From UHGV virus genome UHGV-0041831: a stretch of DNA of 12,454 nt, one strand, 5' to 3'. The notes under the pieces were generated by a model. It was not told the origin of the DNA, ran no database searches, and saw only the letters and a program-made list of their open reading frames with translations. A program made the translations under genes and the position numbers. The stretch is from a virus. The first letter of the stretch is position 1, and every line of letters starts with the position of its first letter. Below, one piece after another: positions 1-8,215 of the stretch.

Positions 1-968
1 GTGAACGGACTGTACGCCGTCCAGATATGGAATGTGATGGAGCGCGGCGGCGGAATTTCATTATCCGCGGCGCTGAAAAACGTCAGACCGTCGCGGGTCC
101 ACATCCCCGTGTTTTCACAGATCCACCGCCCGTTGCTCTGGTCAAGCTCAGACTGATGGATCACGCAGCCATGATGTTCACAGAGGTAGAAAACGCTTTC
201 GGGGCTGTCCTTCTCCCATTTAAGGCCAAAAGGCGTGGACTCATCGCCAAATTTCAGATACTGCGCCTCCCCACAGTGCGGGCAGGGCACATAAAAACGC
301 ATGAAATGCGCCGACTCGTTGGCCGCTTTTTCGATCTGGCAGGAGCCTTTTATTTTAGGCGTCGAGCCGCGAATGGATTTTGGCCATACCGAGCCCTCAA
401 TACGCTTATCCCCCAGCAGGGTTGGCGAGCCCTCTTTTTCGACATCCGGCTCGAACGAGGAAAGTTCGTCATAGCAGACCACGTCCACGGATTTTTCACG
501 GTAGTTTTTGGCGGCAGCGCCGCCCAGGCACCAGAAGCCCACACCCGATGAAAAGCGTTTCAGCGTGATGGTATTATCACGATGTTTACGTCCCAGCCAG
601 GGAGAAAGTTTTTTCAGGCAGGGAACATCGCGAATCGTCGCCTCCACGTGAGACTTCATAAAATCTTCAGCGGCAGAATCCGTGGGCTGAAAAAGCAGAC
701 TGTTTCGGGATTTATGCTCAATAAAATACCCGGCGACTCCCAGCAACATCTTTGTATAGCCAACACGGGCAGATTTAATCAGATTAACAGTCCGGATCTG
801 ATCATTCCCCATGCTGTTCATGATGGCGATCTGGAACGGCAGCGTTTTCCATTCTCCCTCACCATATGAAGATTCTTTAGGCAGATAATAATTTTGATCA
901 GCCCATTCAACTGGCGTCACCGGCAATGCCCTTATCAGGGGCTGTAATGCTGTTGTGACAGCACTCAT
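1..968 (-). CDS. Phage terminase large subunit (lambda gpA-like), 5' portion only; the 3' end lies beyond the window start
   Basis: Minus-strand translation from ATG at 966-968 begins MSAVTTALQPLIRALPVTPVEWADQNYYLPKESSYGEGEWKTLPFQIAIMNSMG..., collinear with the lambda gpA N-terminus as I recall it (VEWAD.NYYLPKES, KSARVGY.KMLLGV, DELS.F). Not in the ORF track because the frame runs off the window edge. Start lies 4 nt after the small-subunit stop. Confidence 0.9.
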   Translation of the reverse strand, partial: MSAVTTALQPLIRALPVTPVEWADQNYYLPKESSYGEGEWKTLPFQIAIMNSMGNDQIRTVNLIKSARVGYTKMLLGVAGYFIEHKSRNSLLFQPTDSAAEDFMKSHVEATIRDVPCLKKLSPWLGRKHRDNTITLKRFSSGVGFWCLGGAAAKNYREKSVDVVCYDELSSFEPDVEKEGSPTLLGDKRIEGSVWPKSIRGSTPKIKGSCQIEKAANESAHFMRFYVPCPHCGEAQYLKFGDESTPFGLKWEKDSPESVFYLCEHHGCVIHQSELDQSNGRWICENTGMWTRDGLTFFSAADNEIPPPRSITFHIWTAYSPF

Positions 969-972
969 CATA

Positions 973-1482
973 TTATTCAGTTGTTGCTCTGATATATTCA
1001 TCGAGTAAATCCGGTAATTTATCCCCCGCCCGCGCACACTGATTTGCCCCCTTCGCAATAAGGGTTTTCAGATGGTCAAGATGGCGCGGTGTTAAATCAG
1101 GAAACTGTCGCTGCATGGATAAAGGGATGGAATCAAGCGTACTGGATAACGCCATTGCCAGCTTGCTGAGGGCAAAAATACAGAACCCGGTGTCAATAAG
1201 TTTTCCTTTTGACACCTCATTTTTTAACTGCTGTGTAACAGCCTGTTCTGCTGTCAGTTCCCATCTGGCAATAAGCAATTTCTCCTCATAGTCGTCTTCG
1301 CTATCGCCATCAGGCACATCGTTTTTACTTCTTCTCAGATACGATATGTAAAAATCGCGCCAGGCATCCAGATCCAGTTGCCCTCGCTTATTCGATATCG
1401 GGGCACCCGGCAATTTCTGCAATCTGCGAAGCTGGCGATCGGTCAGACTTAAATGCCTGGCAACTTCAGTCTGCGTAGCCAC
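973..1482 (-). CDS. Phage terminase small subunit (lambda Nu1-like)
   Basis: 169-aa ORF. The C-terminal half (DTGFCIFALSKLAMALSSTLDSIPLSMQRQFPDLTPRHLDHLK) resembles lambda Nu1 as recalled; the N-terminus has an HTH-like segment. GTG start at 1480-1482 preceded by an AGGTGAGGA Shine-Dalgarno. Sits immediately upstream of the large subunit and next to cos. Confidence 0.85.
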   Translation of the reverse strand: MATQTEVARHLSLTDRQLRRLQKLPGAPISNKRGQLDLDAWRDFYISYLRRSKNDVPDGDSEDDYEEKLLIARWELTAEQAVTQQLKNEVSKGKLIDTGFCIFALSKLAMALSSTLDSIPLSMQRQFPDLTPRHLDHLKTLIAKGANQCARAGDKLPDLLDEYIRATTE

Positions 1483-1530
1483 TCCTCACCTCGCAAAAAA
1501 CTCTCACCTCACAATCACAACAAAACCGGT

Positions 1531-1541
1531 CATGTCCGGTT
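1531..1541 (+). repeat. cosB repeat 1 (candidate terminase small-subunit binding site, core CATGTCCGG)
   Basis: CATGTCCGGTT lies between the Nu1-like start and cosN; embedded in the inverted repeat AACCGG-TCATGT-CCGGTT. Confidence 0.5.
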
Positions 1542-1560
1542 TTAGTGTCTATTTTTTGCG

Positions 1561-1571
1561 CATGTCCGGTT
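1561..1571 (+). repeat. cosB repeat 2 (core CATGTCCGG)
   Basis: Second direct copy of CATGTCCGGTT, 30 bp from repeat 1. Confidence 0.5.
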
Positions 1572-1618
1572 CATGGAAAGCATGTTTTTATATTTTTCAT
1601 ATGGTTAACTTGCAGAGA

Positions 1619-1629
1619 AACCGGACATG
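1619..1629 (-). repeat. cosB repeat 3 (inverted copy, AACCGGACATG), nearest cosN
   Basis: Reverse complement of CATGTCCGGTT. It is separated from repeat 2 by an AT-rich stretch (1572-1618) that could be a bend or IHF-type site, matching the lambda R3-I1-R2-R1 logic. Confidence 0.5.
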
Positions 1630-1885
1630 GATCCCGGAAAATTTTCATAAATAGTGAAAATCCGCGAGGTCGCCGCCCCGTAACCGGTCGGATCGCCGGA
1701 AAGGACCCACGAAAATGATAATGATTATCATCTATATAAGGTTTATCACAACATGTGTGTACGCCATCAAACCACGAGAAATAATCAATTATGACGCAGG
1801 TATCGTATTAATTGATCTGCATCAAATTAACGTAAAAGCAACTTCAGATAATACAAATCAGCAACACTGAATATGGGGAAACATT

Positions 1886-2071
1886 ATGTCATCAAAGAAC
1901 AGAACCCGCAGAACAACAACCCGCAACATCCGATTTCCAAACCAGATGATTGAACAAATTAACATCGCTCTTGATCTGAAAGGTTCAGGAAACTTTTCAG
2001 CGTGGGTTATTGAAGCCTGCAGAAGAAGGCTGTCAACAGAGAGTTCGGGTATGAATTACATAATTAAGTAA
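1886..2071 (+). CDS. Small ribbon-helix-helix-like protein, YlcI/YnfO (DUF3950)-like moron next to cos
   Basis: 61-aa ORF with GGGGAA Shine-Dalgarno 6 nt upstream of ATG. The segment RNIRFPNQMIEQINIALDLKGSGNFSAWVIEACRRRL has a strand-helix-helix pattern typical of RHH DNA binders. Position next to the terminase small subunit matches where ylcI/ynfO-type genes sit in E. coli prophages, as recalled. Transcribed opposite to the late operon. Confidence 0.6.
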   Translation: MSSKNRTRRTTTRNIRFPNQMIEQINIALDLKGSGNFSAWVIEACRRRLSTESSGMNYIIK

Positions 2072-5052: not shown

Positions 5053-6906
5053 TTATGATGATGCCGGTGCATTTATCTCCAGCACCAGACTTTCTATCTC
5101 AACGCCATACGCTGCATTTTTGGTAATATCCGTCAGCGTCAGCGCATTCAGCCCCAGTGTCAGACTGTCTTTTATGACCTGGAATGCCGGGCCAGCCACT
5201 CCATTCAGTTTCGGAGTAACCGTGGCACTGCCGGCGGTGAACACCAGCTCCAGCGTCTGCCAGTCGTTACTGTAATTCCCGAACTCGCCCAACTTTGTGT
5301 TTCCTGCTTTCTTGTGATGCATCAGATTCAGTTTGCCGTCTGTGGTCTGGGTGAAGAACGACATCAGGAACGGGTTACCAGTCCCGGTCATCGCCACGAC
5401 GTCAGGTAACGCTACATCGGTATACAGATAAATTCCCAGACCGAACTGGTTGTTGGTCAGTGCGCCTGACAGTCGAAACTTACAGCTCAGTCTGCCACCC
5501 CGTGTCAGCAGGGAGACTGCGTCATCCACCGGGCGCGTCAGGGACCAGGCTTTATTGCTCTGCTTGGTGATCTTAAATACACCATCTGACAACTGAATTC
5601 CGCCATTCTTAATGCTCCAGCCCTGCGCAGCAGCGTCTCCGGCTGTCGGCAACAGGGAGATTGTGCGTATGGATGCATCTTCAGACGGCCCCGATGGCGT
5701 GTCGCCGCCGGGCGAGGGTTTGATTTCCGGTGCCTTACCACTAATGAAGGCTAAGGTGCGACCGGCTACGTTCAGAATAGCAGTTGCCATACGATCGGGA
5801 ATAATGCCACGACGCGCCCATGAGCTGAAATGCGTCGGGCGATTTGATGATACCCAGTTTTTGTTCGTTCGGGATGCCGAACCGTAATAACCAGACCCGG
5901 CAATATCAGGATCTTCTGACGGGTTGTTTGTCGGTGTATTAACTCCGCTACCATCGGTCATAAAGGGAACAAAATAAATCTGCTGGGATTCTTTACCTTT
6001 ATATGCACCATATACCACTTCATATTGCGTACCGTGTTCTTGTTTCCACGCGTATGTCGTGTCGCCACAAATCCAGGGGACTGATGCCGGACTTCCACCG
6101 TGACACTGCGCCGCCAGCCCGGCAAGGTCAGCACGGAACTGCTGTACCATTGCAAGAAATGCTGCTGGCTGCTGGGCGTAACTGGCATTCGTCATATCGA
6201 ATTCCCCCTGCATCCAGCATATCGCCAGCAAAACGTTTTTCGGGTTTTTCTGCAATGCTGCCTTCGTGCGGAAAAGCAGATCCTGATATAACGGCTTACC
6301 CACTCCCCAGCGAGCCGAATCCTGACTGGCTCCCGTGGACTCGCTGAATGTCCCCTCCGTGCCCTGGGTGAATGCCGAACCACCACGACAGCATGGTACC
6401 AGCAGGATCCCCGCATTATTAGGGATATACGGAAGCAGTTTTTTGGCAATATGTAAGCCCTGTCCGACACAGCCGTACTGCCCTTTGCTCAGGTCAGCCC
6501 GGGGATGGTTAATCGTACTCATATCCTGAACATCATGCAGACAATGGTCAGCAGGAATGATGTCGTTAAATACGCATACTTCACCACCGGGAGTCACTGT
6601 GTTACGACGGGCCAGTTGCTTAATGCGCGGATGGGGCGCATCGTATGAATCCGGAAGCGGAAGCCCTTCACCGTAAGCCATGGCATTGGATTGCCCGGCC
6701 AGTACGATGACGTAGTACCACTCCGGCTCAGTTGCACCACTGACGACCACATCACCTTCTGCTGCAATCGCCTGCATCAGGGTATAAGGGGTTATGGCCA
6801 CCGGACTACCAAACGGCTGCCAGCCCTCCTTCAGTTTTTGTGTCAGTCGTTTCGCAAGGTCTGACGGCGATGCCGCCCTGACCACGTCATAGTGTTTAAA
6901 TGCCAT
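5053..6906 (-). CDS. Prophage NanS-p-like sialate O-acetylesterase (SGNH/DUF303 esterase plus C-terminal domain)
   Basis: 617-aa ORF with a strong GGGAGG Shine-Dalgarno. N-terminal block VIVLAGQSNAMAYGEG carries the GQSN esterase motif. Size, domain layout and position upstream of the holin match the NanS-p/YjhS-like genes that follow stx in Stx phages, as recalled. Confidence 0.85.
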   Translation of the reverse strand: MAFKHYDVVRAASPSDLAKRLTQKLKEGWQPFGSPVAITPYTLMQAIAAEGDVVVSGATEPEWYYVIVLAGQSNAMAYGEGLPLPDSYDAPHPRIKQLARRNTVTPGGEVCVFNDIIPADHCLHDVQDMSTINHPRADLSKGQYGCVGQGLHIAKKLLPYIPNNAGILLVPCCRGGSAFTQGTEGTFSESTGASQDSARWGVGKPLYQDLLFRTKAALQKNPKNVLLAICWMQGEFDMTNASYAQQPAAFLAMVQQFRADLAGLAAQCHGGSPASVPWICGDTTYAWKQEHGTQYEVVYGAYKGKESQQIYFVPFMTDGSGVNTPTNNPSEDPDIAGSGYYGSASRTNKNWVSSNRPTHFSSWARRGIIPDRMATAILNVAGRTLAFISGKAPEIKPSPGGDTPSGPSEDASIRTISLLPTAGDAAAQGWSIKNGGIQLSDGVFKITKQSNKAWSLTRPVDDAVSLLTRGGRLSCKFRLSGALTNNQFGLGIYLYTDVALPDVVAMTGTGNPFLMSFFTQTTDGKLNLMHHKKAGNTKLGEFGNYSNDWQTLELVFTAGSATVTPKLNGVAGPAFQVIKDSLTLGLNALTLTDITKNAAYGVEIESLVLEINAPASS

Positions 6907-7206: not shown

Positions 7207-7217
7207 TTTTTTTGTCC

Positions 7218-7393
7218 ATAAGAAAGCCCCTCCGGAGAGGGGCTAAAGCCGCGTATCTGTATCATCATGCACATGGTGCCGGGTGCCTCCCGGTGAGTTC
7301 AGCCCGGTGCCACTAAACCCGCGTCATTCTCGTTTTGATAATCAGAGATTATACCGTCACCAGTCGCCCCTCCGCTCAGGGGGATTCACCATG
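7218..7393 (-). ncRNA. Tandem unit A: candidate structured small RNA
   Basis: Minus-strand order: promoter-like TTGACA (7432-7437) and TTGTTAAAAAAA, then a 5' block CATGGTGAATCCCCCTGAGCGGAGGGGC, a variable core, a 3' block TCACCGGGAGGCACCCGGCACCATG, then the terminator. 5' CATGGTG can pair with 3' CACCATG; internal hairpins CCCCT/AGGGG and CCGGG/CCCGG. No conserved ORF (frames differ between units A and B). Confidence 0.35.
7225..7244 (-). terminator. Intrinsic terminator of tandem unit A (minus orientation)
   Basis: Perfect 8-bp stem AGCCCCTC/GAGGGGCT with a 4-nt loop, followed on the minus strand by TTCTTATGG. Confidence 0.5.
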
Positions 7394-7495
7394 CGAAATT
7401 TTTTTAACAAATGCCCAGTCTGACAGGCAACTGTCAACTTACTGAATTGTGAGCAACATAGCATTTAACGGGGAACCTGTTTTCTGCAGTAAAAA

Positions 7496-7517: not shown

Positions 7518-7703
7518 TGGAAGGATAGCGGTCATGTGATGCCGGTTTCCCGGTAACTCAGCACCGGTATCTGAGTCAACGTTTTCTCTACTGGGTCATT
7601 TCCGATACGCCCTGCCTGCTGACAGGCTTTCATCACATCTGAAAATATAGCACCCTGACTGATACTGTAGTACCTAAGGTTCCAGAAACTGTGATGTATC
7701 CGG

Positions 7704-7861
7704 CACAGAAAAGCCCCTCCGGAGAGGGGCTGGAGAGTGGCGCTATGTGCCATTGCATGGTGCCGGGTGCCTCCCGGTGAATTCAGTACCAGCACCTGAA
7801 TCCGCGATTATCCCATATACCTACTCGCTGATTGCCCCTCCGCACAGGGGGATTCACCATG
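7704..7861 (-). ncRNA. Tandem unit B: candidate structured small RNA (diverged paralogue of unit A)
   Basis: Same architecture as unit A: TTGACT (7900-7905) and TTGTTAAAAG, then 5' block CATGGTGAATCCCCCTGTGCGGAGGGGC (7834-7861), variable core, 3' block TCACCGGGAGGCACCCGGCACCATG (7756-7780), then terminator. The conserved blocks are near-identical to unit A while the core differs. Confidence 0.35.
7712..7731 (-). terminator. Intrinsic terminator of tandem unit B (minus orientation)
   Basis: Same 8-bp stem AGCCCCTC/GAGGGGCT as unit A, followed on the minus strand by TTTTCTGTG. Confidence 0.55.
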
Positions 7862-7934
7862 CCAGTTTCTTTTAACAAACTCCCCGCAAACCAGACAACA
7901 GTCAACCGCCTGAATTGTGAGACATTTAAAAAAA

Positions 7935-7965: not shown

Positions 7966-8042
7966 TGGCGCGTTGTACTGGATTCGAACCAGTGACCGAT
8001 TGCTTAGAAGGCAATTGCTCTGTCCGGCTGAGCTAACAACGC
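7966..8042 (-). tRNA. argO: tRNA-Arg (anticodon UCU), phage-encoded
   Basis: Manual cloverleaf: acceptor GCGTTGT/ACAACGC, D-arm GCTC...GAGC, anticodon stem ATTGC/GCAAT with loop CTTCTAA (anticodon TCT), T-arm ACTGG-TTCGAAT-CCAGT, discriminator G, encoded CCA. Symbol given by analogy with the Stx-phage tRNA cluster. Confidence 0.8.
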
Positions 8043-8055
8043 AGGATACAGATAA

Positions 8056-8132
8056 TGGACCGCCTTCGGGGACCCGAACTCCGCGCAACCAGCTTCGAAA
8101 GCTGGCGCTCTTTCCTGATGAGCTAATGGCGG
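8056..8132 (-). tRNA. argN: tRNA-Arg-like (anticodon UCG) with non-canonical features; possibly degenerate
   Basis: Manual fold: D-arm GCTC-ATCAGGAAA-GAGC, perfect anticodon stem CCAGC/GCTGG with loop TTTCGAA (anticodon TCG), encoded CCA. But the acceptor stem starts with C and has one mismatch, the T-stem has an A-C mismatch, and the T-loop is TTCGGGT (G at the usual A58 position). Confidence 0.55.
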
Positions 8133-8139
8133 TATGTGA

Positions 8140-8215
8140 TGGTGGCCCTTGCTGGATTTGAACCAGCGACCTGGCGATTATGAGTCGCTCGCTCTCACCA
8201 CTGAGCTAAAGGGCC
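8140..8215 (-). tRNA. ileZ: tRNA with CAU anticodon (Ile2/lysidine type or Met)
   Basis: Manual cloverleaf: acceptor GGCCCTT/AAGGGCC, D-arm GCTC-AGTGGTGA-GAGC, anticodon loop CTCATAA (CAT), T-arm GCTGG-TTCAAAT-CCAGC, discriminator A, encoded CCA. Symbol by analogy with the Stx-phage ileZ-argN-argO cluster. Confidence 0.75.

Follow-up and report, generated by a model that had tools for sequence, protein, structure and literature searches.

The DNA analysed here (the window: 12,454 nt of the virus genome UHGV-0041831) is likely to contain the cos site of a lambda-like E. coli prophage in which, by analogy with lambda, a recognition module of a different class, here termed class A, is combined with the cutting, termination and assembly parts of lambda. 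As assigned from the letters and from alignment, the features follow each other on the minus strand in the order cosQ - cosN - R3' - candidate IHF site - R2' - R1' - terS - terL. By sequence similarity, the sites of cutting and termination are lambda-like, and so is the interface between the small (TerS) and the large (TerL) terminase subunit. The recognition module, i.e. residues 1 to ~60 of TerS together with its putative R sites, is by the same comparison of a different class, class A, with the core TCCGGTT. The analysis shows the arrangement of the sequence and its conservation, a predicted fold and the joint variation of domain and sites; from the analogy with lambda we infer binding, IHF dependence, the virion ends and a specificity distinct from those of lambda, 21 and N15. 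Class A is another specificity class of a known system and not a new kind of system.

Gene content of the prophage region

The window comprises a lambdoid prophage's late region, which reads on the minus strand. In this direction it begins with a DUF968/HNH protein, RusA, the antiterminator Q, a DNA methylase, three tRNA genes and a NanS-p-like esterase, and continues with holin, lysozyme, Rz, an intergenic region, terS and the start of terL. Cos and the repeats occupy the intergenic region connecting Rz and terS (Table 1). The N-terminus of the window TerL is 66% identical to residues 1-163 of lambda gpA.

Several features further upstream were recorded in addition. The methylase (PF01555) is situated between Q and the tRNA cluster, and the tRNA trio, downstream of both Q and the methylase, resembles ileZ-argN-argO, a cluster of Stx phages and other lambdoid phages. 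There is no space for stx genes between the tRNA cluster and the esterase gene of the window. Two copies of the sRNA STnc100 are placed in the late-operon leader, between the tRNA genes and the esterase gene. The esterase-like protein itself is encoded after the tRNA region and before the holin gene. A short DUF3950 reading frame, oriented against the late genes, immediately precedes the lambda-like cos flank.

Table 1. Features of the window, by position (position 1 is the first letter of the window; cos coordinates count from the cohesive end toward terS, bp 1 = window position 1678).
Feature	Position	Strand	Cos coordinate	Remarks
terL (gpA-like large terminase)	1-1001	-		open from ATG at 1001; N-terminal 333 residues, then window edge
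terS (Nu1-family small terminase)	973-1482	-	start at bp 197	169 aa, GTG start at 1482; homologs begin with MATQ at the same codon
Overlapping forward copy, CATGACCGGTTTT	1522-1534	-		one mismatch; read from the sequence
One-mismatch 9-mer, CATGACCGG	1526-1534	-	bp 145-153	overlaps the copy at 1531
Putative R1', CATGTCCGGTT	1531-1541	+	bp 138-148	oriented like R2'; exact 9-mer at 1531-1539
Putative R2', CATGTCCGGTT	1561-1571	+	bp 108-118	inverted relative to R3'; exact 9-mer at 1561-1569
I1-like IHF site (candidate), TAACCATATGAAA	1595-1607	-	bp 72-84	between R3' and R2'; followed by an A/T-rich tract
Putative R3', CATGTCCGGTT	1619-1629	-	bp 50-60	forward (cos-to-terS); proposed primary TerS site; exact 9-mer at 1621-1629
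cosN-cosB flank	1632-1666	-	bp 13-47	near-identical to lambda; 3 of 35 columns variable among relatives
cosN, GGGCGGCGACCT	1667-1678	-		exact lambda 12-nt cohesive end; no second exact match in the window; without variation among the 48 distinct related cos sequences
cosQ-like heptamer, GGGTCCT	1702-1708	-	bp -30 to -24 from the cut	offset as in lambda; sequence reading and lambda alignment
DUF3950 ORF	1886-2071	+		61 aa; Pfam E 9e-19
NanS-p-like protein	5053-6906	-		617 aa; DUF1737 + SASA (sialate O-acetylesterase) + DUF6645
STnc100 (Rfam sRNA)	7214-7423	-		full length; 165 bits (gathering score 47)
STnc100 (Rfam sRNA)	7701-7891	-		full length; 136 bits (gathering score 47)
tRNA cluster	7966-8215	-		Arg(tct), Arg(tcg), Met(cat)
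N6/N4 DNA methyltransferase, PF01555	8265-9314	-		349 aa

Cos site and lambda-like flank

The cos region reads in the lambda manner on the minus strand, because the single match to GGGCGGCGACCT lies on that strand. An exact cosN combined with a cosQ-like heptamer at the lambda offset marks the region, as far as its sequence goes, as a lambda-type cos site. CosQ acts in packaging termination (PMC4669245, PMC6739421). For the variation of the site, 78 IMG/VR loci with a TerS C-terminal domain identical to that of the window were taken, which yield 48 distinct cos sequences; the block that holds the cosQ heptamer is invariant among them.

Likeness to lambda begins about 250 bp upstream of the cut. 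In the alignment across the lambda cos junction, window positions ~1930 down to ~1634 correspond to roughly lambda 48259-48502 plus 1-45, and after the cut 43 of the first 45 bases are the same as in lambda. Past bp 45 the similarity collapses, exactly at the start position of lambda R3. Since the similarity breaks precisely between cosN/I2 and R3, an exchange of the recognition module on a conserved chassis is indicated.

The initial annotation had described the cohesive end and its flanks as almost lambda-identical, which the exact cosN and the 43 shared bases bear out. Its layout, with the repeats inside the interval between cosN and terS, stands, and only the strand had to be mended: terS is found at lower coordinates, on the minus strand. 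The three repeat copies that it listed, one of them inverted, are likewise present as described; their length is corrected from 9 to 11 bp, as all three exact copies of the 9-mer CATGTCCGG lengthen to the same 11-mer, CATGTCCGGTT.

Repeats and layout of cosB

Dinucleotide-preserving shuffles of the 196-bp cosN-terS interval produced three non-overlapping copies of any 9-mer in 3 of 20,000 cases, and three copies of any 11-mer in none of 20,000. Over the whole window CATGTCCGG with at most one mismatch has 7 matches versus 3.2 expected, which is not significant by itself. R1' is not in the orientation of R3'; the only forward copy at this place is the overlapping one with one mismatch, which forms the near-palindrome AAAACCGGACATGACCGGTTTT together with R1'. 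This inverted repeat is trailed by T residues, and R1' is the sole copy located within a hairpin. A forward R1 is found in the class A relative L106.

In lambda, the IHF site I1 lies between R3 and an inverted R2 (PMC9026076, PMC4669245). R3 covers bp 50-65 in lambda, with NMR contacts at 55-63, and bp 48-60 in N15 (PMC9026076, PMC4669245). The record of phage 21 annotates R3 at 50-65, I1 at 74-86, an inverted R2 at 107-122 and R1 at 150-166. The candidate IHF site of the window has two mismatches to YAANNNNTTGATW, a weak match with a score that is equalled by 73% of shuffles, and it coincides with the I1 position of lambda and 21 (bp 74-86). At this position three class A relatives match the IHF consensus without mismatch, with a chance of ~0.65% per locus. 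Apart from the inverted R1', the layout of cosB, as assigned by motif and position, is thus that of lambda.

The stretch around R3' (bp 49-65) is invariant in the 48 distinct E. coli variants. Within the core of R2' 3 of 9 columns vary, in rare variants only, and the nine-position core of R1' possesses one singleton variant. Common variants occur in none of the 27 repeat-core columns versus 18 of 78 spacer columns (Fisher p = 0.006), and with any variant counted the figures are 4 of 27 and 30 of 78 (p = 0.03); both p-values are indicative only, because the 48 sequences are mutually related. In one IMG/VR locus (L024) an unrelated stretch of ~60 bp replaces the sequence from R1' to the ribosome-binding site of terS (bp ~148-215). 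The last base of R1' is altered there and R3' and R2' are retained, which is consistent with a dispensable R1'.

Small terminase subunit

Over its full length TerS matches the PHROGs family phrog_57 (terminase small subunit, E 1.7e-55). Matching to Nu1 is confined to TerS residues 73-164, corresponding to Nu1 residues 86-177, with 46% identity, and the Pfam family Phage_Nu1 (PF07471) matches TerS residues 49-150 only (E 1e-18), leaving its 61 N-terminal profile positions, i.e. the DNA-binding domain of Nu1, unmatched. TerS thus appears to possess the oligomerisation and TerL-binding region of the Nu1 C-terminal type. For residues 1-60 no match was obtained: no Pfam family covers them, a search of the TerS sequence against the PDB returned nothing relevant, and hhalign of the TerS domain alignment against Nu1 residues 1-68 gave a probability of only 4.6%.

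An AlphaFold model of the domain by itself (pLDDT 82, pTM 0.62) contains a short strand, helices at residues 4-10 and 15-22, a wing and a helix at 38-55. The N-terminal domain is predicted from this model to be a winged helix of the MerR type, as in the DNA-binding domain of Nu1, and so would not be a foreign fold. The fold in common with Nu1 rests on the predicted model, because homology to Nu1 is not demonstrable at the sequence level. Residues 15-22 (DRQLRRLQ) form the predicted recognition helix, and the domain is predicted to extend over about residues 1-55 to 1-60. A profile of the domain detected 539 cluster representatives in 1.84 billion proteins; among the 150 of these that are listed, the domain is nearly always found at residues 1-60 of proteins of ~150-210 aa.

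Classes of N-terminal domains and their cosB repeats

Homologs of the TerS C-terminal domain of the window are joined to three classes of N-terminal domain. Class A, to which the window belongs, has the pattern MATQxEVAxHLxLTxRQLRxLQKxPGAP; class B (MAFLLNKSDMASSIGISVQAFDKWGVPP, beginning MAFLLNKSDMASSIGISVQAF...) is of the N15/Monarch type, and class C (MKVNKKELADFFG...) is lambda/21-like. The cosB repeats change with the N-terminal domain, being of the CATGTCCGGTT type in class A, GGTTGTTGT in class B and lambda/21-like in class C, where a Salmonella locus has lambda-like AGATCCgTTCTTC repeats. Because related C-terminal domains occur with three classes of N-terminal domain and the repeats switch with them, domain and sites appear to be exchanged together.

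The class B loci, from E. albertii, Klebsiella and Edwardsiella, retain a lambda-like cos flank, two of them with the exact lambda cosN. Repeats of the GGTTGTTGT type are present three times in the E. albertii (L005, L006) and Klebsiella (L098) loci, in the order R3 forward, R2 inverted, R1 forward, and in more copies in the Edwardsiella locus (L099). These loci match the Monarch-type complex cosB of Feiss et al. (PMC4669245), because GGTTGTTGT is the N15 R3 sequence. Their N15-type N-terminal domain is fused to a C-terminal domain near that of the window in E. albertii and more diverged in L098 and L099. By their sequences, all four are natural recombinants with a junction near DYEEKLLIARW.

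Class A loci were found in Escherichia, Klebsiella, Salmonella, Citrobacter, Enterobacter, Pseudomonas, Aeromonas phages and metagenomes, and nearly all of them possess TCCGGTT upstream of terS. Where cosN is identifiable, the core starts at ~bp 53-56. Members from Klebsiella, Salmonella, Citrobacter, Enterobacter and other E. coli have varied cosN and unrelated spacers, and all have NNN-TCCGGTT at ~bp 54-60. In 13 of 13 class A loci R3' and the inverted copy R2' are set apart by the same offset, in spite of divergent spacers. Distant relatives (Pseudomonas, Aeromonas, metagenomes; 30-45% identity) mostly have a simple cosB, usually with one composite TTCCGGTTCCGG ~20 bp upstream of terS; in phage PhAER-1 the composite site is found at ~bp 54-68 from a lambda-like end.

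Four E. coli class A loci of the Asp20 sub-type (L096, L102-L104) combine CACTTCCGGTT sites with a non-lambda cohesive-end region (...GGGGACGGCAGACGCGC...), in which no cosN-like 12-mer was detected within 4 mismatches. As their cohesive ends are unlike those of lambda, the recognition module would be shuffled against different cosN types too. Two further loci, L003 (Shigella flexneri) and L004 (E. coli), were considered as N-domain swaps and rejected, since their terS is truncated by an IS3-family insertion that deletes the DNA-binding domain and cosB. The same kind of terS defect has been reported for the Sakai prophage Sp4 (PMC2669165).

Co-variation of TerS residue 20 with the site

The three bases 5' of TCCGGTT vary in concert among the copies within each genome and read ATG, ATT or ACT. 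With Arg at TerS residue 20 the base directly preceding the core is G at 18 of 18 sites (9 loci), and with Asp, Asn, Thr, Ser or Lys it is T at 42 of 42 sites (28 loci). In the alignment of 27 unique domains, residue 20 is the sole column with non-overlapping residue sets between the G-class and the T-class. The Arg20 set includes a metagenomic locus (L111, 38% identical) that otherwise groups with the T-class. For two proteins the base was predicted before the DNA was retrieved, G for P0021 (Arg20) and T for P0014 (Asn20), and both predictions held.

Residue 20 sits in the predicted recognition helix, and the base just 5' of TCCGGTT appears to be read by it. The Arg20 loci probably derive from no more than two or three independent lineages; because independent events are few, the co-variation is suggestive of a contact and not proof of it.

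Two claims of the initial annotation are upheld by these comparisons. It had described the N-terminal region of TerS as unlike Nu1 and the C-terminal region as similar, which agrees with an alignable part that is limited to the C-terminal residues. It had further proposed that the DNA-binding domain and the cosB sites co-vary on a conserved chassis, and the break in lambda similarity, the domain swaps and the tracking of TCCGGTT and of its preceding base with residue 20 all lend support to this.

Comparison with known cos systems

The window shares with lambda an identical cosN, the same cosQ offset, a putative R3 at ~bp 50-60, an inverted putative R2 and a third putative site before terS, which starts at bp 191 in lambda and at bp 197 in the window; a candidate IHF-type site lies between R3' and R2'. 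The terminase subunits resemble those of lambda in the TerS C-terminal part and the TerL N-terminus, and the fold of the DNA-binding domain is predicted to be shared. In contrast, the R site of lambda is CGTTTCCGTTCTTC (core CGTTTCC) instead of CATGTCCGGTT, the first ~70 residues of the window TerS are without detectable similarity, and R1' is inverted with respect to lambda R1. A partial likeness is found in class A relatives, of which CATTTCCGGTT resembles lambda CGTTTCCGTT at almost the same distance from cosN.

Phage 21 possesses the same cosN and the same tripartite layout, with R3 and R2 within 2-3 bp of R3' and R2' and in the same orientations. Its R cores CGTGTCGG and CATGTCGG are one base off CATGTCCGG, i.e. 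they differ by a single inserted base. However, the TerS of 21 (gp1) matches the window TerS only from residue 64 onward, and the R sites of 21 read C(A/G)TGTCGG, whereas the core conserved throughout class A is TCCGGTT and not the CATG part shared with 21. R1 of 21 is, like that of lambda, oriented opposite to R1'. Aligned globally against lambda or 21, cosB (bp 46 to terS) scores ~1.5-2.5 sd above shuffles, so no overall homology beyond the motifs is detected.

The N15/Monarch group follows the same concept, and its Monarch-like members L005 and L098 share the cosN of the window and a closely related TerS C-terminal domain. They differ in the R sequence, which is absent from the cosB of the window, and in their class B N-terminal domain; N15 itself has a single R3 (PMC4669245). 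The phage-inducible chromosomal island (PICI) EcCICFT073 is similar in combining lambda-type cosQ and cosN with a non-lambda cosB and a winged-helix domain of the same predicted fold (PMC6739421). Unlike in the island, the recognition domain of the window belongs to the full-length TerS of a phage, cosB is tripartite, and terL and lysis genes are present.

[quoted passage not shown] The predicted common fold and the nearness of the R sites to those of 21 and lambda suggest that class A diverged deeply within one ancestral system of TerS and R sites, and was not acquired from a foreign source.

Proposed mechanism and alternative explanations

By analogy with lambda, TerS dimers would bind the CATGTCCGGTT sites via the N-terminal winged helix-turn-helix, and R3' and the inverted R2' would probably meet through a bend that IHF induces in the DNA between them. 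With its Nu1-like C-terminal part, TerS would then hold the gpA-like large subunit over cosN, where staggered nicks would generate the 12-nt 5' ends of lambda, and packaging would subsequently head toward terS and terL.

The same architecture and function could exist without a separate specificity, if a terminase of the 21 type or another known type cross-recognised this cos, or the reverse. Cross-packaging is possible on sequence grounds, because lambda DNA is packaged by the terminase of N15, whose R sites are dissimilar (PMC4669245), and the class A and 21 R cores, a single inserted base apart, lie at nearly the same distance from cosN, with R2 in the same position and orientation. Nevertheless, no sequence similarity is detectable between the DNA-binding domain of class A and those of 21 and lambda, conservation within class A falls on TCCGGTT rather than on the part common to 21, and the remainder of cosB bears no significant similarity to 21, so that we regard cross-recognition as unlikely while giving it more room than any other alternative. 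A somewhat smaller chance is given to the present copy being the relic of a defective prophage that does not package, within a class that is otherwise functional. Defects are frequent among the lambdoid prophages of E. coli O157 (PMC2669165), class A itself includes terS copies disrupted by an IS (L003, L004), and the visible part of the element comprises 12 kb only. Against such decay, cosQ, cosN, the three sites, terS and 333 residues of terL are all intact and open in the window, and the stretch from cos to terS is 99.2% identical to deposited phages and, over 278 bp, 100% identical to a copy from a complete genome.

That the repeats serve otherwise, as operators of a transcription factor or, in the case of AAAACCGGACATGACCGGTTTT, as a terminator-like hairpin, with their cosB position being incidental, is very improbable. 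The R1' region does form an inverted repeat followed by T residues, and the single composite site of the distant relatives, so close upstream of the terS start, would be fit for an autoregulatory operator; but the hairpin involves the R1' copy only, the distances from R3' to cosN and to R2' are fixed, from genus to genus the sites track the class of the TerS N-terminal domain, while the gene content upstream of cos varies from locus to locus, and a base of the site co-varies with a residue of TerS's own recognition helix. Next to no weight is given to the element being a PICI like EcCICFT073, with a divergent cosB as the target of an Rpp-TerS heterodimer. PICIs keep lambda cosQ and cosN and differ in cosB (PMC6739421, PMC9026076), and RppC is the top structural match of the TerS domain model. 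This reading was rejected on gene content, as the protein adjoining cos is a full-length TerS with a Nu1-type C-terminal part, followed by terL, and the window possesses Q, lysis genes and other lambdoid late genes; moreover, the cosB of PICIs is described with a single R3 and without I1, R2 and R1 (PMC9026076). A lambda-like phage cos with a class A recognition module thus remains the preferred reading.

Distribution and significance

Among 5,426 complete E. coli genomes, 1,342 contain a match to the 278-bp cos region, which is covered to at least 80% in 1,131 of them. Carriers, which include O157:H7, O26 and O103 strains, have a median of 2 copies per genome and a maximum of 6. The deposited phages PhiR12_1, _2, _2_star, _4 and _5, with laboratory E. 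coli hosts according to their records, carry the module at 99.2% identity.

Asadulghani et al. compared the Sakai prophages Sp4 and Sp14 with lambda in alignments of their putative cos and Nu1, and inferred that the Sp14 terminase packages Sp4 (PMC2669165). According to Feiss et al., lambda, 21 and N15 are the only documented specificities of lambda-like cos phages, and more diversity is to be expected (PMC4669245). No description of the class A sites was found in the openly readable papers, where searches with the motif strings gave unrelated papers, mostly on p53 response elements. Class A sites are very widespread and apparently uncharacterised.

More tentatively, with a chance that we put slightly below even, class A may constitute a fourth cos packaging specificity, orthogonal to those of lambda, 21 and N15. 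Its core TCCGGTT would be read by the conserved helix with residue 20 selecting the adjacent base, the sub-specificities Arg/G and Asp-or-Asn/T would coexist in enterobacteria, and the shared cos would be the basis of cross-packaging among prophages. The module would then add to the three documented specificities, and it is common, being present in ~1,100 of the 5,426 complete E. coli genomes. The co-variation of residue and base gives a directly testable way into the question of how small terminases with a winged helix read DNA, and may open a route to engineered orthogonal cos packaging.

Packaging specificity sets which co-resident prophages, defective prophages or satellites are mobilised by a terminase, and thus bears on the spread of prophage-borne virulence genes. 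Because many genomes of EHEC and other E. coli hold several prophages with the same cos, a shared specificity would explain such cross-packaging. If the proposal is true, the shared class A specificity would be the molecular basis on which defective prophages and their virulence cargo are cross-packaged by co-resident phages.
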